64,000 nucleotides of DNA from a virus (IMGVR_UViG_3300009157_000016:32001-96000), one strand, 5' to 3'. Shown: positions 11,561 to 62,427, counted from the stretch's first letter. Notes: a model not told the origin generated them from the letters alone. Numbers and translations: made by a program.

Positions 11561-11877
11561 TACCTTCTCCTCTTGCTCCGGTAGACCTTCTCCGGGCTTG
11601 CTAGGACCCGCGTGCAAAGCTTGTGATGCTTCTCGCACCAACTCTTACCCGGCAAAACGGGGTCTCCGCAATAGCGTGCTTTGGGGTCCCGCAGTTCACC
11701 GTAGATGTACTTGCATTCGTCAAAGTTGGGTATGTTGCCTAGACGGAACTTGGCAAGCTTCTTCGCTTTGCGTTCTTTGTAAGCTTCCAAGTTGAAATCA
11801 GGCGGCAGGCGTTCCCGGTGCTTAGGCGGCCATAGCCGCGCAATGTCCTCCTCAGTGAGGCGAACCCGGTGTTTCAC
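11560..11877 (-). CDS. GcrA-like protein, C-terminal Cys-rich domain only
   Basis: CKYIYGE..YCGDPVLPGKSWCEKH matches the GcrA C-terminal C(K/R)WPxGxP..FCG..YCxxH pattern; no GcrA HTH at the N-terminus. Confidence 0.7.
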   Translation of the reverse strand: MKHRVRLTEEDIARLWPPKHRERLPPDFNLEAYKERKAKKLAKFRLGNIPNFDECKYIYGELRDPKARYCGDPVLPGKSWCEKHHKLCTRVLASPEKVYRSKRRR

Positions 11878-13730
11878 GCAAGAATCTCCTCGTACTCAAG
11901 CGAGGAGCTTTCCTCCGCCATGACGGCCGTGAGCACGCCGGCAAATTCACCGCTGTCGAAGGCATGGTGATCTACCAGCCATACCTTCTTGTTCTCCCGG
12001 TCAGCCCGTTCGCGTAGGTTGTCAATGAGGTCGGCCATCCCCTCAGCGCTCAGGTGCTCAGAAGGCTCGTCATGCATCTCAATGCCGCTTGTGAGCCCCA
12101 CGCGCTCAAGGATCATATTCGACACGGCCAAGTCGCCGGCCAGCCTGATCCGCTGGATCTCGCCGCCGCTAAAGGCTTCGTATGGTACCGGCTCAGTGTG
12201 GCGCGGTGAGTAGATGAGAACGGTGAAACCCTTCGTGATCCCGCCTGACTTGTTCTCACGTTCAATGTCAAGCTGGATCTCCCAGCCAATGAGGCCGAGC
12301 TGCGTCAGGTTGTTGTTCGTCTCAATCTCAAGCTGCTTGAGAGTGCGCTCAATAACGAACAGGCGAATGCGCTTGAAGCCGGCGACCCAATAGAACACCG
12401 CATCATAGTGTTCCTTGAGCCGGGCAATCTCATCCTGCGACTCCTCAATGTCCTTCTCATAAGCATTGATGTCGTCACGGCGCTTATCCAGCAGCGCCTC
12501 AAAGGGGTCCTGCGCCGCCTGTAGCGTGTCGTAGTCCAGTTGCGCCTTCTTCAAGTCGCGCTCAGCTTGCGTCAGGGCGTTGTCGCAGTCCACGCGGGCA
12601 TGGTGCGTCCCGGTGACCTTGTCGCTCGCCAATCTCAGGAGGCCGTCCGACTCTTCCATCTGACGCTTCAACTTCTTGCGGCGGCCCTTGGCGCGCTCAA
12701 GCCGCTCATAGATGTCGTCAGCCTCCTGCTCATCCTTCTCGCGCAACGCTTCTATCTTGTCACCCTGCTTCTTAAGGTGATCACCGTCCACGACCTGTAG
12801 GCACGTGGGGCAGATCTTGCCGCGCAGACTGTCGAAGTGCTTGTGGTCGTCTTGCAGCGCCGCCAGCTTGGCGGTCACGCGGTCGTAGTCGCCCTGCAAG
12901 GAAGCTGCGTCCCGGCGTTCGTCGAAGTAGGTCAGCTCCAATCCCTGCCGCCCCTGTTTCAAGCTGTCCAGCGAACGCGCGGCGGCCTGCTCAGCTTTGC
13001 GCAGCGCCGGCAGCGCATCCTTAAGGTCGGTCACGCGCTCATCGTGTTTGCTGATCTGCTTCTTTAGGGCTTTCAGGCTGACCTTCCTGTCGTCTACGAA
13101 CTGGTCCGACTTGCGCCTCAGCTCTTTCAAGCCGGCAATGGCTTCCTCACGCCGCCCCTCAGCGCGGTTCAGTTCTGCTTCCTCCTTGCGCATGTCAGTT
13201 GAGATGCGCTCAGCTTTGGACGAAGCGCGCTTGCTGCGCTCAAGCCAGAAGTCAAGCTGCATGATGGACGCGAACAGTGACAGCTTGGCGGCCGGCAGCA
13301 AGTCAAAGAACGACGTGCCAAACTGCGGGATGAAGATGGCGTACTTGAACGCCTCATCGTTCATGCGCAGGAGCTTGTCAACTTGATCCTGCGTTGCCTT
13401 CTGTCCGTCAATGGTCAGGAAGTTCGGGTTTTGCCCGCGCGCTATGGTGAAGGTGCCGAGTCCAACGGTTACGTCGACTTCCACCTTGCACGACTGCGTG
13501 CCCCAATGGACGACGTTCGCCGCTTTGATCCCCCGCGTGCTAGTGCCGTAGAAGCACCAATATATGGCGTCCACAAGAGACGTCTTGCCGCAGGCGTTCG
13601 CCCCAAGGCCGGGGCTGTCCTCGTTGCGGCCGGTGAGATAGTAGAGGCCAATGCCTTCCGGGAACCAGAACTCGTGTTCGCCGTAGTAGGACTTGAACCA
13701 CCACATGCAGATGCGCAGGATGTCGAACAT
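11874..13730 (-). CDS. SbcC/Rad50/gp46-like ATPase
   Basis: Walker A GANACGKTS, coiled coil with CPTC zinc hook, signature FSGGE, Walker B HDE, H-loop DHH. Confidence 0.95.
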   Translation of the reverse strand: MFDILRICMWWFKSYYGEHEFWFPEGIGLYYLTGRNEDSPGLGANACGKTSLVDAIYWCFYGTSTRGIKAANVVHWGTQSCKVEVDVTVGLGTFTIARGQNPNFLTIDGQKATQDQVDKLLRMNDEAFKYAIFIPQFGTSFFDLLPAAKLSLFASIMQLDFWLERSKRASSKAERISTDMRKEEAELNRAEGRREEAIAGLKELRRKSDQFVDDRKVSLKALKKQISKHDERVTDLKDALPALRKAEQAAARSLDSLKQGRQGLELTYFDERRDAASLQGDYDRVTAKLAALQDDHKHFDSLRGKICPTCLQVVDGDHLKKQGDKIEALREKDEQEADDIYERLERAKGRRKKLKRQMEESDGLLRLASDKVTGTHHARVDCDNALTQAERDLKKAQLDYDTLQAAQDPFEALLDKRRDDINAYEKDIEESQDEIARLKEHYDAVFYWVAGFKRIRLFVIERTLKQLEIETNNNLTQLGLIGWEIQLDIERENKSGGITKGFTVLIYSPRHTEPVPYEAFSGGEIQRIRLAGDLAVSNMILERVGLTSGIEMHDEPSEHLSAEGMADLIDNLRERADRENKKVWLVDHHAFDSGEFAGVLTAVMAEESSSLEYEEILA

Positions 13731-14056
13731 TAGCCGAAGGGCTCCGGATCGTGGTCGCCGTCACGCCATTGCTGGAAGGCTGCCTTGTCGCGCTCGTTGA
13801 GCTTCCCGTGGCCCATCATGCCCACGCTGTCGGTGATCTCGAAGCGGCCGTCAAGGAGCTGACGGATAGCGCGGGTGAACGGTACCGGCGACTCGCTGGA
13901 TGTGTAGAAGCCATCCCATTCGTCCGTCTTGGCGTTCCACACGTAGTCGCTCAGCACGTAGTAGGTGTCACGTTCCTTGTGGTGGAGGACGTGGTAAAGC
14001 AAACTCATGTCCGGCACGTCACCGTTCTTGTCCGGCGTGTCGTAGTTGATCGGCAT
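13730..14056 (-). CDS. Hypothetical protein (DUF1653-like pattern)
   Basis: HHK..YYVL..Y..FTR..DGRF pattern; GGAGG RBS. Confidence 0.45.
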   Translation of the reverse strand: MPINYDTPDKNGDVPDMSLLYHVLHHKERDTYYVLSDYVWNAKTDEWDGFYTSSESPVPFTRAIRQLLDGRFEITDSVGMMGHGKLNERDKAAFQQWRDGDHDPEPFG

Positions 14057-15610: not shown

Positions 15611-15830
15611 GACGCACCTTTCCACGTTCTTTTAGTTTCACTTTCCTTCCCAACGACCAGTAGACGACCAAGACCCTCTTCGATTGTCGCCACTTGACTA
15701 TGTGGCAGGGAGCGAGGACACGTCTCATCTGCCAGACTTGTTCGAGAAGCTCCTTCAACGTGCAGCCGGGCTCACGGCGGAACTTCCCTTTTATGGGAAT
15801 GCGGAAGAGGGTCGGGTCGTCATCCTTCAT
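15462..15830 (-). CDS. Hypothetical protein
   Basis: ATGA-coupled to the resolvase; long 3' overlap with DUF1643 makes the tail doubtful. Confidence 0.4.
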   Translation of the reverse strand: MKDDDPTLFRIPIKGKFRREPGCTLKELLEQVWQMRRVLAPCHIVKWRQSKRVLVVYWSLGRKVKLKERGKVRHDVLRSKARPRRKEAPKDAGRHGRRRLVRRPQSGIPTDTAPLVEQTKAV

Positions 15831-16345
15831 AGGCGCACGCGATCACGCAGCGGCCGGCACTTGAGAAAATCATCCCAAAAGATGACTTGCAGATTGAGTT
15901 GTGGGTAGATGGCTTCAATGCGGAAGATGCCCAGCAAATGGAAGCCCTTCTTGGTGCTGAGGACCAGTATGGGGAAATTGTTCTGGCGGGCAATGAGGAA
16001 CGGTATCTTGTCGAACTTCTCAGCATCCCGGCACAAGGCAAGCCAGAAGTTGACAAGGTTCCCCCTGCGCTTAATCAGCGCATCAATGTCCAAGTTCTTG
16101 AAATGCTTTGAGTCGACGAGGAAGTTGTCGACGAATTTCATGCCGGCTGGATCAATGGCGCTTATGTCACCGGCTTGCGCAGAGAGGATTGTGCCGGACT
16201 TGAAGGCAATGCTGGCCCGGCCTCCTGACATGGCGGTGCGCCAGAATATGTCCTCACGCTTGCCGCGCGTGACCCATTTGGATAGCTCACGGCAACAGTA
16301 GCGTTCGAACGTAGCGCCCTTTTTCTGACTACCGCCCTTCCTCAT
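15827..16345 (-). CDS. Holliday junction resolvase (PD-(D/E)xK type)
   Basis: GSQKKGATFER, RTAMSGG, GDI, VDSK motifs; near RecA. Confidence 0.75.
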   Translation of the reverse strand: MRKGGSQKKGATFERYCCRELSKWVTRGKREDIFWRTAMSGGRASIAFKSGTILSAQAGDISAIDPAGMKFVDNFLVDSKHFKNLDIDALIKRRGNLVNFWLALCRDAEKFDKIPFLIARQNNFPILVLSTKKGFHLLGIFRIEAIYPQLNLQVIFWDDFLKCRPLRDRVRL

Positions 16346-16679
16346 CTACCCGCTCCCCTTTATCGTTGATAGGCCACTTCTCACCGCTGATAAGACGGAT
16401 AGTGACCATTTCCTGATGACGGTTCATCATGTCGACTTCGTATTCCGCCTTGCCGTTGGCGACCTCAATGGTGAACCGCATTCCCCTTAGCTTCTCGGGG
16501 TCGCTGATGTCCAAGCCGAACTCACGAAGCATTGCGAACGTCGTCGTGGTGGAGTGCATCCACGGAGTGTCTATTGTGGTGTAGCGCTGGCCGTAGATGG
16601 GCTCCACATCTTTGCCGAATGCGGTATCAGGAACCTCGCCGGTGTGCAGCGAGAATTGCATCCTGCGTAGCTCAACCAT
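16329..16679 (-). CDS. Hypothetical protein
   Basis: GAGGAGG RBS; coupled to RecA. Confidence 0.55.
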   Translation of the reverse strand: MVELRRMQFSLHTGEVPDTAFGKDVEPIYGQRYTTIDTPWMHSTTTTFAMLREFGLDISDPEKLRGMRFTIEVANGKAEYEVDMMNRHQEMVTIRLISGEKWPINDKGERVDEEGR

Positions 16680-17724
16680 ACTTCCTCCTCTTGGGTATGA
16701 ACTCGTCCTCGATCTCATTCCAGAGACGACGGACGACCTTGTTGACGCGACGTGTCTCGCGGTCAAACTCCTTGTCGCTCATGTCGTTCAGCGCGTCGCG
16801 GTACTGAGTGAACTCCTTCTTCTCCGCCGGTATGTCAGCCGCCTTGAGACGCTTGATGGACTTGAGCCAGTCCAGCGAAGCCCCAAGGTCATCAATCCCG
16901 TAGCCAAAGATGAAGTCCATGTCGCACGACCTGAACGGGAAGCCGACCTTGTTCTTCTTGCATAGGGCTTTGATGCCGATCCCGTAGACGCGCTCAACGC
17001 CGCGAATGGTGCGCTTAAGCTGCTCCTTGTGGGACAGCCAGAGGATGTGCGTGGCGTAGAAGTCAAGCGCTTTGCCGCCAGCGCGGCGGTGCTTCTCCCC
17101 AAAGCTGACGTTGATGTTGTCCCGCACCTGTGAGACGATAACAAGGCAGACGCGGGCCTTGCCGATCTTCTTGGTCAGCTTGCGGAACAATTCAGACGCC
17201 ATCTTGGCCTTTGCCATGCCGTAGGTGGCGTCACCAATCTCACGCTCCAGTTCCTTCTCGTCGCTGAGGCCGTCATAGCTGTCCAGCACGTACATGCCGG
17301 GCACGTCGTCTTTGATGCAGTCGTCGCAGAAGCGTTCCAAGTCCCGTGCAAACGCTTCAATGGTGGTGATGGGGGCGTCCGGATCGCCGAAGTCTATGTC
17401 GTCAACCGGCGCGCCCATAGCCTGCGCATAGTCCATGTCGTAGGCTTCTTCTGTCTCCCGGTAGGCTGCCTTTCCCTTCGGGTAGTCCATGCAGAAGTTT
17501 GTCAGCCCCTCAGTGGCAAGCGCCGTCTTGGCCGTGCTCTTGTCGCCCACGATGTTGATCATACGTCCTAGGACGTAGCCGCCGCTGAGAACGTTATCAA
17601 GCAGCCCGCAGCCGCTTGACGTGAATTCCAGCTTCTCCTTTTCGGAGGTGAAATAGAGGTTGTCCTCTTTTCTCAGCTTGTCATAAGCCGTTTCATCCTC
17701 AAGCTTTACGCGCCGCTTTGCCAT
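16672..17724 (-). CDS. RecA/UvsX-like recombinase
   Basis: SSGCGLLDNVLSGG, GDKSTAKT Walker A, VLDS, SQVRDNI, GGKALDFYA, KNKVGFPFR; start MAKRRVKL after GGAGG. Confidence 0.95.
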   Translation of the reverse strand: MAKRRVKLEDETAYDKLRKEDNLYFTSEKEKLEFTSSGCGLLDNVLSGGYVLGRMINIVGDKSTAKTALATEGLTNFCMDYPKGKAAYRETEEAYDMDYAQAMGAPVDDIDFGDPDAPITTIEAFARDLERFCDDCIKDDVPGMYVLDSYDGLSDEKELEREIGDATYGMAKAKMASELFRKLTKKIGKARVCLVIVSQVRDNINVSFGEKHRRAGGKALDFYATHILWLSHKEQLKRTIRGVERVYGIGIKALCKKNKVGFPFRSCDMDFIFGYGIDDLGASLDWLKSIKRLKAADIPAEKKEFTQYRDALNDMSDKEFDRETRRVNKVVRRLWNEIEDEFIPKRRKYG

Positions 17725-17931: not shown

Positions 17932-19503
17932 TTAGTCCCGGTCGCGCCTCCGGCGGTCCCGGTCGTCGTCCGGGTCGTCATAGCGGGTGCGCTTCTTGTC
18001 ACCGCGATCGTCGTCACGGTCGCGCTTGCGGTCACGGTCGTCGTCATCATCCCGACCGCCGCGCTTCTCGCCGACGTCACGTTTGCGGTCGTCGTCCTTG
18101 TCCCGGTCCTTGCTGCGCTCACGCATCTCAGCAAGACGGTCCTTCACGTTGCGGCGCTCACCCTTGTCGTCGTCATCGCGCTTCCGGTCCCGGTCCCGGT
18201 CATCGTCATCACGGTCGCGACTGCGGCTGCCACGGTCAACGTCATCCCGGTCACGGCTGCGGCGGTCGTCCTTGTCGTCGTCACGGTCACGCCCGCGCCG
18301 GTCATCACGGTCGTCATCCCGGTCACGGCTGGCACGACGATCATCCCGGTCATCATCACGGTCACGCCGGCCACGACGATCGTCGTCGTCTTCGCTCCTC
18401 TTCCGTGACGACCCACGGTCATCATCACGATCGTCGTCCCGGCCACGGCCGCGCACCGAACCACGATCATCATCATCCCGGTCACGCCGGCCACGGCCTG
18501 AGCCGCGTTCGTCATCATCCCGGTCACGGCTGCGCCCGCCGCGCCGGTCGTCATCCCGGTCACGGTCACGGCTACGGCCACCACGACGATCGTCTTTGTC
18601 GTCGTCGTCCGTTTCAACGCGGACGTGGCCGCCGAAGGCCGCTTCAATGTGGTCGTAGTCGTGGTATTGCAGGACATCAGGGATGGGATTTTCCTTGATG
18701 TAGTCCAGCACGTCCTGCATGTCACGCTTGTTGTCCAAGATGGGACCGCTGGGGAGGATCTTCATCTTGGACGCCGGGTACTTGGTATTGCGGCCGGTGC
18801 CTTCACGGTAGAAGCGGATGTCGTTCCCGTCGTAAGGGTCATCAATGTAGATGAGCGCCTTGGTGTCCTCGTCAACCGTCAGGTTGGCGATGTCCTTGTC
18901 GAACGTCCACGCCATTGCCCAAAACTGAGCGCCTTCGTCAGGAGCGTTCTTGTCAAGGACCCACACGCCCTTCCGCTTCTTGGGCGTCAGGGCTTTGGCC
19001 AGCTTCTCGTCGCCGTCCTTTTCAGCATCACGGCGGGCCTCATCCAGCGGGTCCCTCTTGCCCAGCATCTTGCTGAGGCTGAGGTACGTCTGCGAGTCGA
19101 CGCCAATGCCGTAGTTGCAGTAGATGTCGTAGCAGTAGTACTTCGCATCGTCCCACGTGGGCGGCAGGATGCGGATCGTGTTCTTGCCTTCCTTTGGCTT
19201 GAACACCTTGATCCCATCCTTTACGATGGAGTCGAAGTTCCCTCCGCTTTGGTTGGCGGCTTCCCGCACGGCTTCACGCGACGTGCGCTTGTAGACAAAG
19301 CTACCACCACGACTGGAGCCGCGATCATCATCACGGTCACGATCACGCGAACGACCACGGTCACGATCCCGGTCATCGTCGTCCCTCCCACGGCTTGAGC
19401 GCCTGTCGTCATCATCCCGGCCACGGCGACGATCGTCGTCCCGGTCACGGTCGCGATCCCGGTCATCATCCCGGTCACGGCGTCTATCGTCATCACGTGC
19501 CAT
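17932..19503 (-). CDS. gp32-like ssDNA-binding protein with long Arg/Asp-rich N- and C-terminal tails
   Basis: Core FKPKEGKNTIRILPP..DPYDGNDIRFYREGTGRNTKY is typical of gp32-like SSBs; lies between RecA and UvsY-like genes. Confidence 0.75.
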   Translation of the reverse strand: MARDDDRRRDRDDDRDRDRDRDDDRRRGRDDDDRRSSRGRDDDDRDRDRGRSRDRDRDDDRGSSRGGSFVYKRTSREAVREAANQSGGNFDSIVKDGIKVFKPKEGKNTIRILPPTWDDAKYYCYDIYCNYGIGVDSQTYLSLSKMLGKRDPLDEARRDAEKDGDEKLAKALTPKKRKGVWVLDKNAPDEGAQFWAMAWTFDKDIANLTVDEDTKALIYIDDPYDGNDIRFYREGTGRNTKYPASKMKILPSGPILDNKRDMQDVLDYIKENPIPDVLQYHDYDHIEAAFGGHVRVETDDDDKDDRRGGRSRDRDRDDDRRGGRSRDRDDDERGSGRGRRDRDDDDRGSVRGRGRDDDRDDDRGSSRKRSEDDDDRRGRRDRDDDRDDRRASRDRDDDRDDRRGRDRDDDKDDRRSRDRDDVDRGSRSRDRDDDDRDRDRKRDDDDKGERRNVKDRLAEMRERSKDRDKDDDRKRDVGEKRGGRDDDDDRDRKRDRDDDRGDKKRTRYDDPDDDRDRRRRDRD

Positions 19504-19518: not shown

Positions 19519-19689
19519 TCAGGCGCTCTCGGCGCGGGTTTCTTTCTGCCCATGCTGGATAAGGCTCAGGAGTCCCTGAACGTATGCCAGCTTGGCGCGG
19601 TAGTATGCGATGAACACGAAGTTCAAGAAGCAATACAGCAGCGCCAGAACAAGGATCAGGACTGCTACGCCCAGTACGTCCTCAGTCAT
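19519..19689 (-). CDS. Small membrane protein (56 aa, absent from ORF track)
   Basis: MTEDVLGVAVLILVLALLYCFLNFVFIAYY...; fills the gap between UvsY-like and SSB genes. Confidence 0.5.
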   Translation of the reverse strand: MTEDVLGVAVLILVLALLYCFLNFVFIAYYRAKLAYVQGLLSLIQHGQKETRAESA

Positions 19690-20182
19690 CGTACCTCACC
19701 CTTCGTTTGGAACGGCCTTCAATGATCCGCTCCATGTTGCGCTTGGAACGATACTCGTCAGCCCGGCCGCCTTTGGTGGCGTCCGTCTGATAGTAGTTCG
19801 CTACGTACAGCCCTGCCAGATCCTTGAGCATGTAGGACCGCATTGAGAAGGACTCCTTCAACGTCTGGCACCTGTCCGCCCATTCCTTGGCGTCAAGGTA
19901 GCTCTTGGTGGCCTCAATGTGGTCGTCATGTATCTCAATGGCGTTCTTGATAGCCGCCTCACTGGCCTTGCCGTCCGACCGTTCCAGTTCCCTCCTGCAC
20001 TCAAAGTATAGGCGCGCGTCGATTTGGGACAGTTCCTCTTTGGCTGTGTCCCGGTCAGCGTTTGCCGCTGCCAATAGATCGCCGGCTTCATAGAACAATT
20101 CTGGTTGCCTGACCAATTCCATGTCTAGGTCAAGGCGGTCAATTTGCAGCGCACGGCGCAGTTCGCTAGGTTTTGCGGGCAT
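19682..20182 (-). CDS. UvsY-like recombination mediator
   Basis: LQIDRLDLDMELVRQP..KASEAAIKNAI..SFSMRSYML helical pattern; context with RecA and SSB. Confidence 0.6.
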   Translation of the reverse strand: MPAKPSELRRALQIDRLDLDMELVRQPELFYEAGDLLAAANADRDTAKEELSQIDARLYFECRRELERSDGKASEAAIKNAIEIHDDHIEATKSYLDAKEWADRCQTLKESFSMRSYMLKDLAGLYVANYYQTDATKGGRADEYRSKRNMERIIEGRSKRRVRYDD

Positions 20183-20214: not shown

Positions 20215-21192
20215 CTAGGCCCGGTGGAGTTCCAGAACCAAGCCAATGGAAACGTAGAGGGGAGCGTACTTGGCGGAATTGTCATAGGGCGTTGAGAAGC
20301 ATTCGATGATCCTCAGCAGGCTCGCAGCGCGGCGGTGATCAGTCGTCTTGGCCGCCACCTTCGCCATGTAGTGGCACGTAACGATGCGAATGCTTTCAGC
20401 GTCCTGATTGGCTTCCTCCATGTCCTTGCAGATGCGCATGGCGTCCTTCCATGTGCCCTTGGGCTTCATGAGGAACTGGCAGAAGTCATTGATTTCCTTC
20501 GTCTCACCGGCCAGCCTTAGCGCCTCACGCGCGTCGGTCACCGTTTCGCAGTACTCAACCTTCTCAAGGTAGGTCAAAGCCTGCCGTGGTGAGCCGCCGC
20601 TGTTCTCAGCAATCAGCTCTAGTATCTCATCCTCCACCTTGAGGTCCGCCTTGTCCATGACCTCGGCAAGGATGAGCAGAATTTCATCCTCACTGAGCGG
20701 CTTGAGATGGTAGTCAATGCACCGCGTCTTGATGGTGGCAGGAACCTTGCCGGGCAGCGTGGTGCAGAAGAACCAGTACACGTGCTTGGGCGGTTCCTCC
20801 GTGGCCTTGAGAATGCTGTCCCATGCGTTGCTGGACAGCTTGTGGCACTCATCCACGATGATTCCTTTGACCGGACTGTCGCCAATTGCCCGGTAGTTGG
20901 CCTTCTGGACAATGCTGCGCATGGCGTCCACACCGGTATGCGTGGCAGCGTCCACGTCGAGGATGTTCGCCAGCGTGATAGTGGCATCGTCGCTCTTGGC
21001 CCCAAGCAGGGCAAACTCGTTCGCCACAATGCGGGCAAGCGTCGTCTTGCCAAGGCCGGAGCCGCCCGTGAACAGGAAGGTGTGGGCACGCCCCTCCTTC
21101 ACGACCTTGCGCAAGGACTTCACGACGGCGTCGTGTCCAATGACGTCCTTGAATACGTTCGGCCGATAGGCGGTGTGTAGTGACGTGCTCAT
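20215..21192 (-). CDS. Clamp loader, DNA pol III gamma/tau-like AAA+
   Basis: YRPNVFKDVIGH, GGSGLGKTTLARI, DAATHTGVD, IVDECHKL, LKATEEPP, TIKTRC. Confidence 0.95.
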   Translation of the reverse strand: MSTSLHTAYRPNVFKDVIGHDAVVKSLRKVVKEGRAHTFLFTGGSGLGKTTLARIVANEFALLGAKSDDATITLANILDVDAATHTGVDAMRSIVQKANYRAIGDSPVKGIIVDECHKLSSNAWDSILKATEEPPKHVYWFFCTTLPGKVPATIKTRCIDYHLKPLSEDEILLILAEVMDKADLKVEDEILELIAENSGGSPRQALTYLEKVEYCETVTDAREALRLAGETKEINDFCQFLMKPKGTWKDAMRICKDMEEANQDAESIRIVTCHYMAKVAAKTTDHRRAASLLRIIECFSTPYDNSAKYAPLYVSIGLVLELHRA

Positions 21193-21512
21193 CTTCGTTT
21201 ATCCTTTCGCTTCCCCTGTTGGCTCATGTGAAATATACCGTTCGCACAGTCAGGGCGCTCCCCATTGCACGGCCTCCAGTAGATGTGTCCGCACAACGTA
21301 CACTCAGTTGGCTTGTCACCGGGGAACGCTGGATACATCGTTCGGTGGTCACCGGCTTTGTACTCGGTCATGACCTCTATGGGTCCGTCGTCCAGCCTCA
21401 CCCGCTGACGGTGCGGCGGCGGGGCGGGCTCAGGCAGTATCAGGTCATCTTCGTCAAGCCTGACCCGTTTGCGGGGCACGACGGGCTCATCTAAACGCAC
21501 TCGCTTTTTCAT
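21189..21512 (-). CDS. Small protein with three RVRLD repeats and a C-terminal Cys cluster
   Basis: KKRVRLDE/RKRVRLDE/RQRVRLDD then CTLCGH..PC..DC; GGAGG RBS; ATGA-coupled to the clamp loader. Confidence 0.7.
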   Translation of the reverse strand: MKKRVRLDEPVVPRKRVRLDEDDLILPEPAPPPHRQRVRLDDGPIEVMTEYKAGDHRTMYPAFPGDKPTECTLCGHIYWRPCNGERPDCANGIFHMSQQGKRKDKRR

Positions 21513-21548: not shown

Positions 21549-24266
21549 TTAGATACCCTGAGAATCGAATGACTTGTAGTTCTCGCTCCAGTACTTGCCC
21601 ACGGGCTCAAGCTTGTTCCACTTCTTGCCAATGGACACTTCCACGCTCATAGGCACGTTGATGAAATCATACGGGAGCAGAAGCAGTTCGCGTGCCAAGT
21701 AGCTGATCTCATCTGCCAGTATGCTGTCCTTGTCAGGCATCATGAACGTCAGGTCGTCATGGATTTGCATGATGGGATGACGGTAGCGGATCTTATGCTT
21801 GAGAGAGCTGCGGCTGATCCTCACCATGCCGTCGTTCACAATGTCAGCCGCCAAGGACTGGATGGGGCTGTTGTACAGTTCGTGTCGGCTCATGGGATAG
21901 TAGCGGCGGCGGCCGGTGAACGTTTCCACGTAACCCACGTCGTAGTAGGTCCGCATGGTCTCGTCCTGCCACTCCTTGAGGCCGGAGAACGTTTCCCAAA
22001 ACTCCTCAAAGATGTCCTGCGCCACGTTGTCAGGCATGGCCTCGCCAAGGAAGGGTAGGAAGTAGCTGGCAACCGACGGCTCAGCCGCACCAAAGATAAC
22101 AGGGAACACCATCTTGTTCTTGACCAGTGAGCGCGCACCCTTCAATGCGTCCTCGTCATTCTTCCCCTGCTTCTCCTTAAAGTAGTCGAACAGCCACGGC
22201 CAGCGCTTGCCAATTTTGAGCGCCCATTCCTTGTGAACGTCGTATTCCTTCCACGTAGCACCGACCATGTTCTTGTCATTGCAGAACATGCAGGCGGTAC
22301 ACCACTCCAACTGCCCAAAGTCCACGCTAACGAAGACGTGGCCTTCCAGCGCTTCAACTTGCTCCCTGATCCAAGCGTCCTTGTGCTTGGGCCAGTTCTG
22401 CATGTTGGGGTCGTCCGAACTGAGTCGGGCGGTGGTGGTGAAGGTCGTGTTGAAGGAAGTGTGGAGCTTGCCGTCGGGAAAGATGAGCGTGCCGTCAGGC
22501 AGGATCATCTGGTCGACGTACGTGCTCTTCATCTTCACTTTGTTGCGCAGCTTGATAATCAGCGGCGCAAGCGGATGGTCTATCTTCTCAAGGACGGCTT
22601 TGTCAACCTTCTCAGTGACTTTATCTGAGTCCTTTTTGTCCTTGACGAAGACCTCAGGCCGCTTTAGGTAGTCACGGAATATGGTAAGGACCTGCGGCTG
22701 CGACTCAGGATTGAATTCCCCTTTATGCTCACTGACATACTTCTTGACCACTTTGAGGCCAAGGATGTCATTTACGATACCCTTGACTTCGTCTTCCAGC
22801 TTGCCTTGCAGGCGCTTGGCGGTCTTCTGGTTGATGGGGACGCCGTAGTGCTGCATGAGAGCCACCGCGCCCTGACGCGGCATGGCCATCTCATAGACAT
22901 GCTCCTGCCTGATGTCCCTGATAAGCTTGTCCTGATGGAACCAGAGTTGCAGCGTGGCGCGCGTGTCAGCGCCATTGTAGATGAGGACCTGATCGTAGGG
23001 GCTTTTGCGCAGGTCCTTCTTGTCCAGCTTGAACTGGCTCTTGATGTCTATGCCGAAGTGCTGGCGTGTGAGGAAGCCTAGCTTTTGGTATTGCGAAGCG
23101 TGATCGTCCTGACCCTTCTCGTTTGGCCCTTTGCGGCCGTCAAGGATGTAGGCTTGGACCATTGTGTCTTCCCACGAGTTGTGGTGAACAATGTCTTCGC
23201 CAAAGTAGAAGATGTACCACTCCATCTCAAATGGAGAGTTGTGCGCAATCTTGGGGATGTCACGGCGGCGTATCAACGCCTCAAGCCGGTCAAGGATCTT
23301 CTGCCGCTGCGCTTTGGACCAGTTGGCCTTGGGATGGTCGACTCCGAACGAAAACGTTCTTAGTTTTAGGTGCCTGTCATAGTAGGAAAAGGCGGCCGTC
23401 AGAATGATAGCGCCGGTGCGGTAGGGTCTGAGAGGCCACGTCTCAAGGTCGGTGGCGTAGCAGGCAACTCCTCTCTCAATGTCGTCGAACTCCCGCATCA
23501 GGGAGTCAAAGTCATCCTCGGGGCGCTCACCGCTGTAGGTGTTGACGTCCTTCTTGACAGTCTGCTGAGTCCATACTTCCGGCCACGGCGGATCGTCGTC
23601 CATGAACCGCCATATCTGCTCAAAGTCCAGCTTCCACGCGCCACCTACTCGGCCGTTCAGCGGGCGTCTGTCATCCTTGGCCGACCGCAGGACGTAGGCA
23701 GGGTGATTGGTGGGGAAGAACCAGCACTCATGCTTTCCAATGGTGACCGCAAAGAAGCGGCCCCGCATACCTTGCATGTCTTTCGTGCCAAGCATCCACT
23801 GCAAGGCTGGGATGCCAAGGCCCACGATCAGCTTGGGGGCAGCTTCCTCAATGGCGGCGGTGACGTAGCCGCGACAGCACTCCTGCTCAATCCACTCCGG
23901 CGGCCGTATCTTACCCTCAGCGTTTTTGGGGAAGTGCCTGACTGTGTTCCCGTAACCGCAGTTGTCATAGTATTCGTTGGGGATCATGGACTTGAGAAGC
24001 TTGCCTGACTTCCCAATGAACGGTACGCCCTCCTGTTCCTCCTGCGGACCCGGTGCCTCACCTAGGAAGAAAATGTCGCATCTGCGTGGTACGTCTTCAC
24101 GGACCTCATTGCCGGCACGTGAGAGGGGGCAAGCGCGACAGCCTAGGCGTTGCAGCGTTTCCGAGCTTTGCTTCGTTTGCTGGCCTACCGAAGACCGGCG
24201 GGGGCCGGTTTTGTCGGCGCCCTTTTTCGCGTTCGCCTTATCTGCTTTCTGGTAGAAGAAGCCCAT
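21549..24266 (-). CDS. Family A DNA polymerase with N-terminal family-4 uracil-DNA glycosylase domain and 3'-5' exonuclease
   Basis: UDG: CRACPL, GEAPG, CC, HPAY; exonuclease: DLET, HNSPFE, YNGAD; Pol: TTARLSSDDPNMQN, DFGQLE, RSLVK..F..IFG, NSPIQ, QIHDD. Confidence 0.95.
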   Translation of the reverse strand: MGFFYQKADKANAKKGADKTGPRRSSVGQQTKQSSETLQRLGCRACPLSRAGNEVREDVPRRCDIFFLGEAPGPQEEQEGVPFIGKSGKLLKSMIPNEYYDNCGYGNTVRHFPKNAEGKIRPPEWIEQECCRGYVTAAIEEAAPKLIVGLGIPALQWMLGTKDMQGMRGRFFAVTIGKHECWFFPTNHPAYVLRSAKDDRRPLNGRVGGAWKLDFEQIWRFMDDDPPWPEVWTQQTVKKDVNTYSGERPEDDFDSLMREFDDIERGVACYATDLETWPLRPYRTGAIILTAAFSYYDRHLKLRTFSFGVDHPKANWSKAQRQKILDRLEALIRRRDIPKIAHNSPFEMEWYIFYFGEDIVHHNSWEDTMVQAYILDGRKGPNEKGQDDHASQYQKLGFLTRQHFGIDIKSQFKLDKKDLRKSPYDQVLIYNGADTRATLQLWFHQDKLIRDIRQEHVYEMAMPRQGAVALMQHYGVPINQKTAKRLQGKLEDEVKGIVNDILGLKVVKKYVSEHKGEFNPESQPQVLTIFRDYLKRPEVFVKDKKDSDKVTEKVDKAVLEKIDHPLAPLIIKLRNKVKMKSTYVDQMILPDGTLIFPDGKLHTSFNTTFTTTARLSSDDPNMQNWPKHKDAWIREQVEALEGHVFVSVDFGQLEWCTACMFCNDKNMVGATWKEYDVHKEWALKIGKRWPWLFDYFKEKQGKNDEDALKGARSLVKNKMVFPVIFGAAEPSVASYFLPFLGEAMPDNVAQDIFEEFWETFSGLKEWQDETMRTYYDVGYVETFTGRRRYYPMSRHELYNSPIQSLAADIVNDGMVRISRSSLKHKIRYRHPIMQIHDDLTFMMPDKDSILADEISYLARELLLLPYDFINVPMSVEVSIGKKWNKLEPVGKYWSENYKSFDSQGI

Positions 24267-24421
24267 CACTTTTCCGCTTTGAGTTGGTCGAGTCGCTTGC
24301 GGCATGTGGCAAGCAAGTCACGGTTCGCGAAGTCACCGTGACGCTTGAGTTCTGCCTCCTGCACCGCCAGCATGACGTCGACGATTTCGATCAGGGCGTT
24401 AACCTTCTGCACATCCGGCAT
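24266..24421 (-). CDS. Small hypothetical protein
   Basis: MPDVQKV..., GGAG RBS, coupled to PolA. Confidence 0.45.
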   Translation of the reverse strand: MPDVQKVNALIEIVDVMLAVQEAELKRHGDFANRDLLATCRKRLDQLKAEK

Positions 24422-24422
24422 G

Positions 24423-25478
24423 TCAGTCTCCGAAGTTGGACAAGATTTGGAAGAGGTCCGCCCCCTTCCGGTAGACCGTGAAGCCTTCCAGCACGGCCAT
24501 CTCTGAGCATACGTCAATGCTGCGCGCCATCAAAGCCGCGTTGACCTTGATCTCGACGTCTGGATGATCCCCTTGAAGGTTGACCAGATCGCGCACCTCG
24601 CCCATGTCGGTGTTCGTGTATAGGCGCATCCGGCCTTCCTTGATGCTGATCTCAGTGGGCTGCGATTTGGGCTCAGCCACGACACGCGCCCGGCTCAGAG
24701 CGTGCTCAAGTCCTTTGGGGACCTTCATCCACGGGATCTCATCCCGCGTGGTCTTTTCGACCCACATGGCGTGGTCCACCGGGTCTTCTGGTTTGATGAC
24801 GCGGCCGTAGACCTTGTAGTCCTTCTCAAGCTCGGCCAACACCCATTCGTCAGAAGCGTGCAGCCGGCCGTTCATGGACTTGTCGCTCTTGCAAATGCGC
24901 AGGACCGACTCGCAGAAGGAGTTGGGCATGACGAAGCTGTGCGGGTCGTTGTAGTTGGCTCCGTCGATCAGGTAGTGCGTGAGGCTGTCTGAGTCGCAGG
25001 AGTAGAAGCTGATCCCGTCACCGGTATCCAACGTGATGCCCATGAGCGCCTGTTGGCTGCTGTCCTTGCTGGTCGTGGTGAGGCAAATTTCCATCGCCTC
25101 AATCAGGCTGTCATCCAGGTCCAGCACCACGTCCCACGACTCGTCAGACGGTTCTTTGAACAGGAACTCTGACTCTGGCAAGTAGGGCAGGCGCATCTTG
25201 GACCGGCCGGCAATGAACACGACTTCGTGTTGCTGGTCGTCGAACTCAATCTCCACTTCCTCGGTGCGGCAGTTGCGCAGCAAGCCGAGCATGGTGTCGC
25301 CGTGGCAGGCGAAGGGCGCTACGCCGGACGTGCATTTGGCCACGATGCCTAGGTGGTCGTCCGTCGCGTACAGGGTGTCCCCTGTGAACACGAAGTTCTG
25401 GTAGACGGGAACCAAGTCCTGATCGGCCAAGGCGGGCTTGATCAGTTCCAACATCGTGACCAGTGCTTTGCGTCTCAT
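24423..25478 (-). CDS. Sliding clamp (DNA pol III beta-like)
   Basis: About 350 aa; PVYQNF..LYATD, QALMGI..YSCDS, ALSRARVV patterns parallel DnaN; next to Pol and clamp loader. Confidence 0.8.
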   Translation of the reverse strand: MRRKALVTMLELIKPALADQDLVPVYQNFVFTGDTLYATDDHLGIVAKCTSGVAPFACHGDTMLGLLRNCRTEEVEIEFDDQQHEVVFIAGRSKMRLPYLPESEFLFKEPSDESWDVVLDLDDSLIEAMEICLTTTSKDSSQQALMGITLDTGDGISFYSCDSDSLTHYLIDGANYNDPHSFVMPNSFCESVLRICKSDKSMNGRLHASDEWVLAELEKDYKVYGRVIKPEDPVDHAMWVEKTTRDEIPWMKVPKGLEHALSRARVVAEPKSQPTEISIKEGRMRLYTNTDMGEVRDLVNLQGDHPDVEIKVNAALMARSIDVCSEMAVLEGFTVYRKGADLFQILSNFGD

Positions 25479-25918
25479 AGCCTCACCCTTCTTGCTAGTT
25501 TCCAACGGCGCTTGGCCGATTGCTGCATCTTTGCGATAGATTCGGATGTGTGCCGCGTACCATACCTTATGTGACCTATACCTTTCTGCGTGACGCCGGA
25601 GTGACCCTTCTGAGATTTATGTTTGGCGTGACAAGAAGGATAGAGTTGATTCTGACTGTTGGTTCCATCAAGTAAGTGCGCGGCGTTGCAGCACGGATGA
25701 AATTCGCAGTCATGGAGAACCATTCTTGGCCATGCTGGCACGTAACCGTTCTCTAAGAAGAACGCCACGCGATGGGCAGTGTACTGTATGCTGTGACGAA
25801 CTGAGAATACTCCATGCCCACTGGTTTGCGTTCCGCCTAACCAAGGCCAGCATTCGTCGGGGCCGCGTCGGTCAACTTTGGACCAGAAGCGCGCTATGTC
25901 TTTAGCGCTGAGGATCAT
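25475..25918 (-). CDS. HNH homing endonuclease with NUMOD3-like tail
   Basis: RFWSKVD..CWPW, AHRVA, LHDCE..CCNAAHL..GTNSQN; HTSESIAKM. Confidence 0.9.
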   Translation of the reverse strand: MILSAKDIARFWSKVDRRGPDECWPWLGGTQTSGHGVFSVRHSIQYTAHRVAFFLENGYVPAWPRMVLHDCEFHPCCNAAHLLDGTNSQNQLYPSCHAKHKSQKGHSGVTQKGIGHIRYGTRHTSESIAKMQQSAKRRWKLARRVRL

Positions 25919-29302: not shown

Positions 29303-29875
29303 TCAAGCTGTTAACCACTCACGAAACGCGGCCACCAAGTCAGCGTCGCTATCCAGACCAAGAATGCGCTTGATCCTTGTGTTGAAGCTGGGGCGTGGAA
29401 GCCCACGGTGTCTCCTACTTGGTTTCCTAAGCTCTTGCAAGTGGCGGTCACTGGCGAACACGCTGAGAAGCAAAAGCACTTCCGGAGGCGCGTTCGCCAA
29501 GACAATAGACACTGACCCTTCGTCGGCAAGATTGCAAGCTAATTCGCTCACATCTTCTACGCCGTCAACGAAGGCGGACTTGCGTTCAATGTTCTTGTTT
29601 GCTAGGTCAATCAGCTCGTTCAGGAGAGCCGTCTTGTAGAGCGCCATGAAATGGGGCGCGTGCATGACGCGCGGATACTTGACTGTGCAGCGCTCGAATA
29701 CAATGTAGGCGTCTTGCAGGAGGTCGTCCATGCCACATAGGACTGGATCATAGCGCCATAGGTTTTCACGTAAGAACTTGATCGTGTAGGCTTTTATCAC
29801 CCCGTCCCATTCAGGATACCATTCAAGACGGACACGACTGGACAACTTTTCAAGCCGCACACGGCGCTTCGGCAT
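29303..29875 (-). CDS. Sigma-70 region-2-like factor
   Basis: MDDLLQDAYIVFERCTVKY..FMALYKTALLNELIDLA resembles the region-2 pattern EDLxQExxxxxxxxxxxF..FxxY...xxNxxxD; GGGAGAGG RBS before MPKRRVRL. Confidence 0.6.
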   Translation of the reverse strand: MPKRRVRLEKLSSRVRLEWYPEWDGVIKAYTIKFLRENLWRYDPVLCGMDDLLQDAYIVFERCTVKYPRVMHAPHFMALYKTALLNELIDLANKNIERKSAFVDGVEDVSELACNLADEGSVSIVLANAPPEVLLLLSVFASDRHLQELRKPSRRHRGLPRPSFNTRIKRILGLDSDADLVAAFREWLTA

Positions 29876-55008: not shown

Positions 55009-55126
55009 CCCCGTTGTAGAGTTCTATCAACATGCCAGTCATGATGCCTATGATAAGGCCCATGACGCAAGGAAGGAGGATGGACCAGCCATCCTCCTTC
55101 CACGTTAGCCTCCTAAAGGCCACTCG

Positions 55127-56420: not shown

Positions 56421-56421
56421 A

Positions 56422-56838: not shown

Positions 56839-56906
56839 GTTCTCACTCCTACACGAACGGTATAGACCTGCGTAACCCTCACGCCGTTCACATGAGGCAG
56901 GATGCG

Positions 56907-57639: not shown

Positions 57640-57742
57640 GTCTACTCTCCTGTCGAATTTACCTGTCCAATACAGGGTTTGAGTTTCGTTTCCGACCGTG
57701 TATATCTGTCCCTCCGATGTGCTTTTCTTATCGGGTGTCCAC

Positions 57743-58429
57743 ATGCAGGGTAAAAATAAACGACGGGTTCGGCTAGACGACGAGCCGCGACCGAAGCGCG
57801 TGCGGGACATGGAGCCCGCCAACCGCGCCCGTGACCGGGCTTATCGAGATGCACCGCGCGACACGGAAGGTCGCATGATTCCCGGCTTTAGATACAAGCA
57901 ACTCGTCGATGCATACGAGTCCGCCGGGCTGGAGCCGCATGTTCAGCGGGTAGACGACGTCAGCTTGACGAAGCGCCCCATGTTCATCTCAAACCCTGAG
58001 AAGGGTAAGAGGCTGATCAAGCTGCTCCGCAAGGGGTTGCCTTACACCACGTGCTGTCGGTTGATCGGGATCAGTCGCTCCACATTCATTGAGTGGATGG
58101 TGAAGGGCCGTGAAGGGCATCCCCATTACGTTGACTTCTACGAGAAGATCTGCAAGGCGGAAGGCCAAGCAGAACTCAGCAGGCTCAAGGAGCTGCGGCA
58201 GGATGGTAAGGGCGACTGGAAGTCGTCTGCTTGGCAGCTCGAGCGCCGTTGGCCTGAGCATTGGGGACGCCGCGACGCAGTGCGTGCGGAAGTTGTCGCC
58301 AACGTAGAAATCAGCGTAAAGGGGAAAGAAAAGCTGGCGCAGCAGGTCGCCACCGACGAAGTGTCGCGCGAGCTTGCGCGCCGCATGATTGACGGAACGG
58401 AATACGGCTACGAGGACCTCAGCAAATGA
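57743..58429 (+). CDS. Terminase small subunit
   Basis: HTH LRKGLPYTTCC..GISRSTFIEW, WKSSAWQLERRWPEHWG; directly upstream of TerL. Confidence 0.75.
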   Translation: MQGKNKRRVRLDDEPRPKRVRDMEPANRARDRAYRDAPRDTEGRMIPGFRYKQLVDAYESAGLEPHVQRVDDVSLTKRPMFISNPEKGKRLIKLLRKGLPYTTCCRLIGISRSTFIEWMVKGREGHPHYVDFYEKICKAEGQAELSRLKELRQDGKGDWKSSAWQLERRWPEHWGRRDAVRAEVVANVEISVKGKEKLAQQVATDEVSRELARRMIDGTEYGYEDLSK

Positions 58430-60042
58430 CCGGTCTGATTGAGAGCACTGGCCGGTTCCGCGTACGATTGGACGCTGAGGACCTGGAAGAGATTGAGGCC
58501 CGCCCCAAGCGCCGCGTGCGCTTGGGGACAGACGTAGCAGAGCTGTCGCAGGCGGCGTATGCCAAGCCGCTTGTCGACACTGCCGGGAAGCCGCTGATAG
58601 TTCCCAACAGGGACTTGATGGGCAGGATCACACCGGAGGAACTGGCGTACGCGCTGCCCGGCGGTCTTGCCAAGCTGGCCTACCCCAAGTGGATGTATGC
58701 CCCCTACATCCGCTACGTTGAGAACCGCATCCTGCCCATCATTCAGGGCAACAAGTCCATCTACCTGATGTTCTCAGCGCCGCCTCGGCACGGCAAGACA
58801 CAATTCATTTCCAAGGTGCTGCCGGCTTGGTATCTTGGGCGCAACCCTGACAAGCGTGTCCTGCTCGTCACCTACAACACTGAGTTCTCCAAGCAGCAAG
58901 GTCGCGCTGCCCGGAACATCTTTGAGCAGTTCGGTCCCACGGTCTTCAACTTGAAGGTCGCGATGGACAGTTCGTCCGCTTCCCATTGGGACATTGAAGG
59001 ACACCAAGGCGGTATGGAAGCCGTAGGTGCCGAAGGTTCCATCATGGGTAAGGGCGCGGACCTTCTGATCATTGACGATCCGCTCAAGGGCTTTGAGGCT
59101 GCGATGAGCGAGACCATCCTACAGCGTGTGTGGGAATGGTTCCTGACCGACGTTTACTCCCGTCTGGAGCCCGGCGCTTCGGTCATCATTGTCATGACGC
59201 GCTGGACGCTTCTTGACTTGATTGGTCGCATTGAAGCGCGGCGCATTGAGACGCAGGAGGAGGTTGACGCCGGCGAGGAAGAGATTGTCGCGTTCGACGA
59301 GTTTGAGCGCATCAACTTCCCTGCCTTGGCGACCGACGACAACGACGTGCTTGGCCGCCTCACCGGTCAGGCGTTGTTCCCGCAGCGGTACCCCGCAGAG
59401 CGCTTGCTCAAGATCAGGCGCAACATGGACACGTACTGGTGGGAGGCCCTGTATCAGGGGAACCCCGTGCCGCTCAGCGGCACGATGATCGATATCAAGT
59501 GGCTGACCGGCACCGGCCGCCAGTACGTGGAGGAGATGGTCCGCAATCAGTTCGAGATGATCGTCATCTCAACTGACACGGCCAACAAGGACACCGAGCT
59601 GGCCGACTTCAGTGTGTTCGGCGTGTGGGGTATCCGTGAGGACCGTTACTACCTTTTGGACCTCATCCGTGATAAGATGGAGTTCCCTGAGCTACTAGGC
59701 ACCGCGAAGGCGTTGCTGGAGCAATGGGATCCGACCTTCTTCCTCATTGAGGACAAGGGCTCAGGAACCAACCTGATCCAAATGCTCCGCAACGAGGGTG
59801 TGGACTGCGTGCGGCCCATAGACCCCGGTAGCGAGAGCAAGATCATCAGGATGAGCTCTGAGACCCCCGCGATGAGAGTTGGCAAGGTGAAGACTCCGAA
59901 GGACGCCTCATGGCTCGAGCCCTACCTGCTTGAGGCAAGAAGCTTCCCCCGTGGCAAAAAGGACCAAATGGACATGACCTCGCAGTTCCTACGCTTCATG
60001 CGTGAGAACTCAAGCGGGATCAAAATGTGGACATTCCAATGA
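58426..60042 (+). CDS. Terminase large subunit
   Basis: PPRHGKT Walker A, GKGADLLIIDDP Walker B, MTRW, ALYQGNP, DTA..DFS, IEDKGSG, FPRG..DQMD. Confidence 0.95.
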   Translation: MTGLIESTGRFRVRLDAEDLEEIEARPKRRVRLGTDVAELSQAAYAKPLVDTAGKPLIVPNRDLMGRITPEELAYALPGGLAKLAYPKWMYAPYIRYVENRILPIIQGNKSIYLMFSAPPRHGKTQFISKVLPAWYLGRNPDKRVLLVTYNTEFSKQQGRAARNIFEQFGPTVFNLKVAMDSSSASHWDIEGHQGGMEAVGAEGSIMGKGADLLIIDDPLKGFEAAMSETILQRVWEWFLTDVYSRLEPGASVIIVMTRWTLLDLIGRIEARRIETQEEVDAGEEEIVAFDEFERINFPALATDDNDVLGRLTGQALFPQRYPAERLLKIRRNMDTYWWEALYQGNPVPLSGTMIDIKWLTGTGRQYVEEMVRNQFEMIVISTDTANKDTELADFSVFGVWGIREDRYYLLDLIRDKMEFPELLGTAKALLEQWDPTFFLIEDKGSGTNLIQMLRNEGVDCVRPIDPGSESKIIRMSSETPAMRVGKVKTPKDASWLEPYLLEARSFPRGKKDQMDMTSQFLRFMRENSSGIKMWTFQ

Positions 60043-61935: not shown

Positions 61936-62085
61936 ACTGGACATGCTTCGCCAGTTGCTATCCGACCTGCTCATTCTGGTTGAGAGGTTCGATGGTATTG
62001 TGAAGGGTGCCGCGCTCAGCTCCAAGCCGGGCAGAGCGTGGCACGAGCTAGGCGGCGCGTGGCCGCCTAGGCGCTAGCGGGCAGC

Positions 62086-62427
62086 CTACAGCCTGACGCG
62101 CTCACGTCGCGGCCTGTCGGCCTTGTCTGGCGGCGTGCGGTCAGCCTCAAAAGCCTGCCCCGCCTGCCGCTTACGAAGCATTGCTGTGATCTGCCGTTCC
62201 TGGTCGGCGAGGGCCTGCTTCATCAAGTAGAACTTCGCCGCCTCCAGCGCAGACCGAGCGAGGCCGTTAAGACCCCGCACATACTCGCCGTACATGTCGG
62301 GACCTACATCCTCCACGTAGTTGCCTTCCTGGAAGCGCGTAAGGTCATGCAGCTCGGCCATGAGGTCCTCGCACTTGACAAGGAGCTCCTTCTGAGACTG
62401 TAGCGGAACGATTGACAGCCTCGGCAT
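62086..62427 (-). CDS. Hypothetical protein ending in RRERVRL
   Basis: Coupled to the upstream gene (TGATG). Confidence 0.55.
   Translation of the reverse strand: MPRLSIVPLQSQKELLVKCEDLMAELHDLTRFQEGNYVEDVGPDMYGEYVRGLNGLARSALEAAKFYLMKQALADQERQITAMLRKRQAGQAFEADRTPPDKADRPRRERVRL

Follow-up and report, generated by a model that had tools for sequence, protein, structure and literature searches.

A terminal RVRL peptide shared by unrelated DNA-handling proteins of an uncultured phage clade: a candidate docking tag

Why do about 17 unrelated proteins of one virus carry the same short basic peptide near a terminus? The question is raised by a stretch of 64,000 nucleotides (IMGVR_UViG_3300009157_000016:32001-96000; the window), which is bases 32,001–96,000 of one 108,377-bp virus record (G0, or G000 in coordinates). 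A sequence-only reading of the window had noticed the tetrapeptide Arg-Val-Arg-Leu (RVRL) 13 times in nine proteins and had proposed a docking or addressing signal that recruits its carriers to one partner. We find that the motif is real and enriched, that it is terminal, selected as a peptide and portable between protein families, and that it is confined to one phage clade. The carriers serve mostly recombination, modification, regulation or packaging of DNA. The RVRL tag looks like an undescribed docking or address label. Our preferred explanation, which sequence comparison places a little above an even chance, is a clade-specific docking tag of the short linear motif (SLiM) type, through which one common partner would gather the carriers.

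Number and position of the RVRL copies

Exact RVRL turns up 16 times when all six frames of the window are scanned. Of these copies, 13 belong to nine credible genes, all near a terminus and at exactly the coordinates first reported. The other three are in non-coding frames, at 11202 (minus strand), 24228 (plus strand) and 35785 (minus strand). Looser forms are also present: MAKRRVKLED in RecA, KRRVRYDD at the end of a 166-residue protein, KKRTRYDD in the single-stranded DNA-binding protein (SSB) and PKRVRD in the small terminase subunit TerS. The N-terminal copies are 4–37 residues from the start codon, and a Shine-Dalgarno-like sequence is found upstream in five of the six starts examined, TerS being weak. 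Four C-terminal copies in the window stop exactly at the leucine, and the other C-terminal ones continue with two or three acidic residues.

Whole-genome statistics were calculated on 151 crude gene calls (31,581 residues), with 300 within-protein shuffles as the null. RVRL occurs 15 times in this G0 proteome and 0.85 ± 0.93 times in the shuffled ones (maximum 4), in agreement with the earlier rough expectation of less than one. The longer form [KR]RV[RK]L occurs 11 times with 0.23 expected. The HNH endonuclease and GcrA-like genes, both missed by the crude caller, give two extra RVRL copies. The suggested check for terminal enrichment gives a clear answer: a terminal zone with 34% of the residues holds 14 of the 15 copies (binomial p = 3e-6). 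In a background set of 229 unrelated phage and prophage loci (about 920,000 residues), R[VI][RK]L occurs at 0.8–1.3 per 10,000 residues (0.14–0.36 when terminal), versus 7.1 in loci of the clade, all terminal. The excess over other phage loci is about 20-fold.

Every Arg (six), Val (four) and Leu (six) codon is found at the RVRL sites. Synonymous positions vary freely across the twelve motif bases, so the motif is not a DNA repeat. The position after the leucine in G0 is Asp or Glu or the C-terminal carboxylate in 19 of 21 cases; outside G0 it is often Ser, Gly, Ala or Thr. Seven G0 proteins end in R-x-[RK]-L-COOH, including one with KTRTRL; this count refers to the crude gene set, outside which lie two further open reading frames (ORFs) ending in RVRL and the HNH and GcrA-like genes.

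Outside the window, RVRL is found at the N-terminus of a DNA methyltransferase and in three small ORFs, and one ORF within the structural module carries tag variants. Lysis, metabolic and most virion proteins are without the tag. Given that structural-module ORF, the earlier statement that no virion protein has it is not strict. The carriers in the window are listed below.

11560–11877, minus strand: GcrA-like protein of 105 residues (sub-threshold Pfam match); N-terminal M-K-H-RVRL-TEE at 11857–11868, GTG start with GAGGAG upstream
15827–16345, minus strand: PDDEXK/RusA-like junction-resolvase-type nuclease; C-terminal RD-RVRL-stop at 15830–15841
16672–17724, minus strand: RecA-type recombinase; N-terminal MAKR-RVKL-ED at 17701–17712
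17932–19503, minus strand: gp32-type SSB with Arg/Asp-rich tails; variant KK-RTRY-DD at 17980–17991
19682–20182, minus strand: 166-residue protein at the UvsY position; C-terminal variant KR-RVRY-DD-stop at 19691–19702
21189–21512, minus strand: 107-residue protein with three tags (21492–21503, 21456–21467 and 21393–21404), then a Cys-rich zinc-ribbon-like domain
25475–25918, minus strand: HNH endonuclease; C-terminal AR-RVRL-stop at 25478–25489
29303–29875, minus strand: conserved 190-residue protein (label 'sigma-like' not confirmed); N-terminal tags at 29852–29863 and 29825–29836
37141–37467, minus strand: 108-residue protein; C-terminal KK-RVRL-stop at 37144–37155
57743–58429, plus strand: TerS, small terminase; N-terminal KR-RVRL-DD at 57764–57775, then PKRVRD
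58426–60042, plus strand: TerL, large terminase; tags at 58459–58470 and 58513–58524 in an N-terminal extension before the conserved fold
62086–62427, minus strand: 113-residue protein; C-terminal RE-RVRL-stop at 62089–62100

Several names given at first reading change. The 'sigma-like' and 'UvsY' labels find no confirmation in Pfam and PHROG scans, and the GcrA-like label comes from a match below the Pfam threshold. The 190-residue 'sigma-like' protein also gives a poor fold model (pLDDT 61) and no significant PDB match by fold or sequence profile. What was called a resolvase is indeed of junction-resolvase type, and is more correctly a PDDEXK/RusA-like nuclease. The three-tag gene sits between the polymerase and clamp loader genes. 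The 190-residue gene always adjoins the gene of a 313-residue protein (28344–29285, minus strand), which has the top codon-usage score. This protein has a conserved N-domain of about 75 residues (invariant E8, E10, L11 and W56), a mixed-charge linker and a winged-helix-like C-domain.

Pfam and PHROG scans show a tailed-phage gene layout in G0. The head and packaging genes encode an S78 protease-scaffold, an HK97-type capsid protein, portal, TerS and TerL, with tail genes beside them. The replication and recombination module encodes SbcC/SbcD, DUF1643, the PDDEXK/RusA-like nuclease, RecA, the SSB and the 166-residue protein, further a clamp loader, a PolA polymerase fused to a UDG domain, a beta-type clamp (phrog_947) and the HNH nuclease, and also two DNA methyltransferases, a primase-like protein, an SNF2 helicase and a DnaB helicase. 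Other genes encode RNase H, a dCTP-deaminase-like protein, an amidase endolysin, a J-domain protein and a MoxR-like AAA+ protein with a VWA/DUF2201 partner. The window has 58% G+C, and no tRNA gene is found in G0.

Conservation in the clade and its boundary

The relatives of G0 form a metagenomic clade whose members span 33–59% G+C. Cultured phages show at most 50% identity to G0 for every protein tried, and no close prophage relative is present among 185,579 species genomes, where the top TerL match is 35%. Relatives in IMG/VR were retrieved with alignment-based queries; scans with single proteins (TerL, VWA) gave no match. A literature search for the RVRL motif in phages returned nothing relevant.

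Among 40 TerL homologues at 48–77% identity, 34 have the strict motif R[VI][RK]L, with one to three copies per protein. The remaining ones have the near variants RFRL or RIHL or, in a member of 33% G+C, Lys-rich KxKL. All copies are within the N-terminal extension, which is elsewhere unalignable; both G0 copies are thus outside the conserved fold, as had been supposed. With no motif assumed, RVRL is by far the commonest 4-mer of the extensions, appearing 47 times in 1,795 residues. When the extensions are anchored on [RK]L, Arg is at −3 in 62 of 76, Val or Ile at −2 in 55 of 76 and Lys or Arg at −5 in 52 of 76. A small or acidic residue follows at +1, and Pro is at +3 in 32 of 76. The residue before R-V-R-L varies (K, P, Q, R, T or N), and R, V, R and L are the conserved positions. 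The consensus of the tag is [KR]-x-R-[VI]-[RK]-L, then a small or acidic residue, x-x-P, or a free C-terminus.

Other carriers keep the tag as well, which bears out the expectation of conservation in orthologues. In G001, a complete relative of 102.6 kb and 52% G+C, the orthologues of TerS, TerL, RecA, the PDDEXK nuclease and the 190-residue protein have it at the same terminus. Apart from TerL, tagged orthologues of these proteins at 36–61% identity are found in G001, G004, G005 and L398–L400. The PDDEXK nuclease ends in RNRVKL in G001 and MRVRL in G004, and in nine tagless relatives it ends without the tag. RecA has MAKRRIKL in G001 and KRQRVRLEDE in G004, the 190-residue protein of G001 begins MPRTRVRL, and TerS is tagged in G001, G005, L398 and L399. 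In G004, where RecA and the PDDEXK nuclease are tagged, a methyltransferase and SbcD are also tagged, though their G0 orthologues are not. The fragments G005, G006, G008 and L398–L400 contain additional tagged TerS, TerL and small ORFs. When termini are aligned with those of tagless orthologues, the tag is a tail added to a conserved core on the PDDEXK nuclease, gene 136 and the methyltransferase.

This pattern is typical of a short linear motif: core letters are kept, flanks drift, copy number varies, and carriers are gained and lost. Because the codons are diverse and the motif is kept at 40–77% identity while its flanks drift, selection is on the peptide, as the sequence-only reading had argued from codons. 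A looser basic-Leu motif is found more widely. Almost all of 120 RecA homologues start with MAKR-x-[KR]-[LIV], the SSB of most wider-family members ends in SIR[DE]RLxxRR and then an acidic tip, and the UvsY-position protein and SbcD have similar stretches at the corresponding termini. RVRL may derive from an older motif of recombination proteins that was sharpened and afterwards copied widely.

The boundary of the tag is sharp. Ten further genomes of 61–96 kb, gathered with a RecA alignment, make up eleven tagless relatives together with G002. The ten share the replication module of G0, including the SSB and, mostly, the clamp, the 313-residue acidic-linker protein, VWA and MoxR. Their TerL is 27–29% identical to that of G0, and a homologue of the G0 capsid protein is undetectable in them. 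The strict motif occurs 21 times in G0, 14 times in G001 and 6 times in G004, versus 1.3–2.6 expected. In the eleven relatives, whose head/terminase module is different or divergent, it occurs 0–5 times with 1.2–1.9 expected, so there is no enrichment; G002 (TerL 40% and portal 52% identical) has none. The few strict matches in tagless relatives are internal, notably in a conserved segment of the SbcC core.

SbcC of G0 (minus strand) has internal RIRL matches at 12141–12152 and 12360–12371. The latter, GFKR[VI]RLF[IV][IV]E, is kept in all relatives, tagless ones included, and belongs to the folded core; it is not a tag.

The boundary tracks TerL identity. Genomes at 48% or above are tagged, and at 46% or below neither the extension nor the tag is present. 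The near-outgroup LAZR01000113.1 (L402), a 107-kb metagenome contig with TerL 44% and portal 51% identical to those of G0, has no tags within the 15 kb read. Since the tag is found only in genomes with G0-type TerL, portal, major capsid protein and protease, it follows that lineage and not the replication module. Most carriers are nonetheless replication-module proteins. The genes confined to tagged G0 and G001 (and G004 where covered), present in none of the eleven tagless genomes, are the capsid/protease module, tail genes, the J-domain protein, RNase H and a few ORFs. TerS and portal are found among the tagless genomes only in G002, and TerL is distantly related throughout.

Two neighbouring genes show distributions of their own. 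The J-domain protein (G000 12852–13511, minus strand; L001) has an uncharacterised C-terminal part of 150 residues and is found only in G0 and G001 of 14 related genomes; it is possibly an adaptor to host DnaK. The DnaB helicase (34910–36391, minus strand) has an acidic C-terminal tail, GERDDDYGDSSD, which recalls the tail of T7 gp4. The tail is far longer in G001, present in many relatives and absent from G002 and G003.

Docking and the competing explanations

How would such a tag act? As a docking signal, it would be added as a disordered tail or leader onto otherwise unrelated proteins. The partner would bind it probably in extended conformation, with Val and Leu on one face and the two Arg on the opposite one. 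Asp, Glu or a carboxylate after the leucine, as in G0, is expected if a basic group of the binding pocket adjoins, and one to three copies per protein suit avidity for an oligomeric reader. The partner would gather RecA, SSB, the UvsY-position protein, the junction nuclease, the HNH nuclease, DNA methyltransferases, small regulators and both terminase subunits. We infer a single reader and its site of action, most likely the place where replicated, branched phage DNA is processed and packaged. As to what the reader is, our first choice is a tentative one, a protein of the clade-specific terminase/portal/head module. It is ranked first because TerL is a universal carrier, TerS is a frequent one, and HNH nucleases and junction resolvases reportedly help packaging machines. 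A conserved host hub is a more doubtful choice, and a phage replication-module protein an improbable one.

Several points weigh against docking. Sequence comparisons found no reader. One complex prediction joined the three-tag leader (residues 1–48) to the clamp, the SSB core and the 313-residue protein's N-domain; its score of 0.02 (mark 0.32), for four chains with a disordered partner, a case unlike the calibration, tells in neither direction about binding. In G0, PolA, the clamp, the clamp loader, DnaB, the primase, the SNF2 helicase and SbcCD are untagged, which is odd for general recruitment. Both TerS and TerL are carriers, so neither is obvious as the reader, and about one third of the carriers are small proteins without assigned function. 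Shared ancestry, and possibly a shared host, confound the link to the head and packaging module. The looser basic-Leu termini of the wider family suggest that part of the signal is possibly older and has a different meaning.

The best surviving alternative, although an unlikely one, is a linear address signal, the counterpart of a nuclear localization signal (NLS) in a bacterial virus. The tag would then direct proteins that handle or package DNA to a compartment or condensate made by the phage, for which the mixed-charge SSB and a polyacidic DNA-binding protein would be the scaffold. The core K-R-V-[KR]-L-D equals that of the c-Myc NLS PAAKRVKLD (PMC2817886). The tag is also terminal and multi-copy, as NLSs are, and its presence on proteins that handle DNA fits such an address. 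Candidate scaffolds exist: the SSB of G0 has about 290 residues of R/D tails, and the linker of the 313-residue protein becomes about 130 consecutive Asp/Glu in the G001 orthologue. However, these two proteins are also present in tagless relatives and in Edwardsiella phage vB_EpM_ZHS, and the tag is missing from the replisome proteins, which would have to go to the same place. In importin-type signals Lys at P2 is the key residue, whereas the invariant positions here are R, V, R and L. No shell or importer gene is recognised among the scanned proteins, and the known phage nucleus reads surface patches, not linear signals (PMC11087766). The cultured Edwardsiella phage has the same module order, and its SSB (L268:10540–11910) likewise has RD/RE-rich tails.

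Ranking below this, and rather improbable, is a generic nucleic-acid-binding arm, a basic tail which tethers the carrier to DNA or RNA with no protein reader. Most carriers are enzymes acting on nucleic acids, and the Arg-rich motif lies in disordered termini. Basic N-terminal regions of phage terminal proteins are said to target the nucleoid and to act accidentally as NLSs. An electrostatic tail, however, is not expected to keep Val at −2, Leu at 0 and Pro at +3, or an acidic residue or carboxylate after the leucine as in G0. Tagless orthologues work without the tag, and it is also present on proteins that already have strong DNA-binding domains.

Lower again, and distinctly improbable, is a loading or turnover tag: either a procapsid encapsidation signal for co-injection, or a tag for an unfoldase or protease of the ClpX type or the phage MoxR-VWA pair. 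T4 internal proteins, the HK97 protease and encapsulin cargo are loaded in this way, by terminal peptides on otherwise unrelated proteins, and one capsid/protease module is common to the tagged clade. TerS and TerL, though, act outside the capsid. ClpX reads N- or C-terminal tags such as RRKKAI-COOH of MuA, and a MoxR-like AAA+ protein and a VWA/DUF2201 protein with intact DxSxS are encoded in G0, G001 and G006. For turnover, the signs are mixed: seven G0 proteins end in a free R-x-[RK]-L-COOH, but terminal degrons would not be expected as far as 37 residues from the N-terminus or in tandem (two or three per protein), and no ClpX or Lon gene is seen among the scanned proteins. Nor does the tag co-occur with the VWA/MoxR pair, as a substrate tag should. 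The motif is not enriched in 78 other VWA/DUF2201 phage loci (0.36 terminal motifs per 10,000 residues, equal to background), and the VWA gene is present in nine of the ten tagless relatives.

The MIDAS of VWA/DUF2201 was considered separately as a specific reader of the acidic or carboxylate position and was rejected, since VWA phages and tagless relatives are unenriched and the residue after the leucine is often non-acidic outside G0. The 'metallopeptidase-like' VWA/DUF2201 protein and the MoxR-like AAA+ protein are encoded at G000 103962–105290 and 106084–107151 (L003:8062–9390 and 10184–11251, minus strand). Beyond the wider-family genomes, the VWA protein is found in hundreds of IMG/VR contigs.

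The sliding clamp of the phage (24423–25478) was the candidate that the sequence-only reading named first, by analogy with the T4 clamp gp45, which binds tails of gp55 and gp33 and also that of gp43. The portable, terminal tag with variable copy number on conserved cores behaves like a docking or address signal; the clamp as its reader we consider very improbable. A compartment import factor, a protease adaptor or the acidic patches of RD-rich proteins, also named there, may be the reader. The phage does encode a beta-type clamp and a clamp loader, and the gene of the three-tag protein adjoins the loader gene. Clamps serve as tool-belts on which many DNA enzymes dock through short terminal motifs (PMC2988020, PMC9690074). 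However, the polymerase, an obligatory clamp client, has no RVRL, nor do the PolA orthologues. Clamp ligands described so far are hydrophobic or hydrophobic-acidic, and the polymerase and other clients can exchange them (PMC2988020), whereas in [KR]-x-R-V-R-L only Val and Leu are hydrophobic, in contrast to QL[SD]LF and the T4 tails. Clamp orthologues are also present in G002 and eight of the ten other tagless genomes.

PolA has an N-terminal motif of its own, M-[GS]-F-[FL]-[FY], in G0, in seven related genomes (among them G001, G004, G002 and G010–G012) and in the Edwardsiella phage, and it is kept in several tagless relatives. This is a second, older terminal motif and probably the one that binds the clamp. 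The PolA-UDG protein (gene 21549–24305, minus strand) has this motif, then a basic disordered stretch, at its N-terminus (24228–24266). The clamp start, placed from homologues at residue 10 of its ORF (25478), overlaps the upstream HNH stop codon by four bases (25475–25478), which suggests translational coupling.

Chance, composition or a DNA-level repeat has a negligible probability: the genome is GC-rich and Arg-rich and the conserved SbcC match is a folded-core coincidence, but the shuffle and background comparisons, the diverse codons and the motif conserved in about 40 TerL homologues leave it almost no room.

Comparison with known systems

Short linear motifs are central in eukaryotic cell biology, and only a few small cases are known in which they organise sets of phage proteins, such as T4 clamp ligands and capsid-targeting peptides. 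The RVRL tag is carried by roughly one in ten proteins of this phage, among them the recombination machinery and the two terminase subunits. An entire uncultured clade retains it, and new carriers have clearly acquired copies. Once found, the reader would reveal how a phage of middling size brings recombination, DNA modification, regulation and packaging together spatially, and the tag would become a portable means of directing proteins to that place. The sharp clade boundary and the tagless relatives with the same replication module provide a natural comparison.

The c-Myc NLS, read by importin-alpha, has nearly the same core, KR-V-[KR]-L-D, and NLSs are likewise terminal, disordered, often repeated and carried by DNA-handling proteins. 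RVRL differs in its invariant R-V-R-L, where an NLS core would centre on the P2 lysine. The host is also evidently bacterial, as Shine-Dalgarno-led genes and tailed-phage modules indicate, and is not known to offer an importin or a compartment. The chimallivirus phage nucleus (PicA) likewise gathers DNA-handling phage proteins selectively, RecA included. Its import, unlike RVRL, uses no conserved linear signal and reads folded surfaces (PMC11087766); G0 is 108 kb and has no shell protein recognised among the scanned proteins. In the SSB tip DDDIPF and the acidic tails of T7 gp2.5 and gp4, a short terminal peptide also organises many DNA-metabolism partners. There, one hub carries the peptide and many pockets read it, whereas with RVRL many proteins carry the peptide and one pocket is presumed.

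The T4 clamp epitopes (C-termini of gp43, gp55 and gp33) and the bacterial motif QL[SD]LF resemble RVRL as short terminal motifs on unrelated DNA-transaction proteins. They lie on flexible linkers, have interchangeable carriers and link replication, late transcription and, in T4, packaging. The T4 tails are hydrophobic-acidic and shared with the polymerase (PMC2988020). RVRL, unlike them, is basic and absent from the polymerase, and is found at either terminus in one to three copies, on carriers that include TerS, TerL and RecA. The T4 capsid-targeting sequence, the C-terminal tail of the HK97 protease and encapsulin peptides are terminal peptides on unrelated proteins which one HK97-fold shell or scaffold reads. 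RVRL too is a short terminal peptide shared by unrelated proteins and is co-distributed with one capsid lineage, a relation confounded by shared ancestry. It differs from them in that its carriers include terminase subunits and abundant recombination proteins and its motif is unrelated. By analogy, these capsid-targeting, HK97 and encapsulin peptides would be nearest in logic if the reader is a head-module protein, and the T4 clamp ligands would be nearest if it is a DNA-bound hub.

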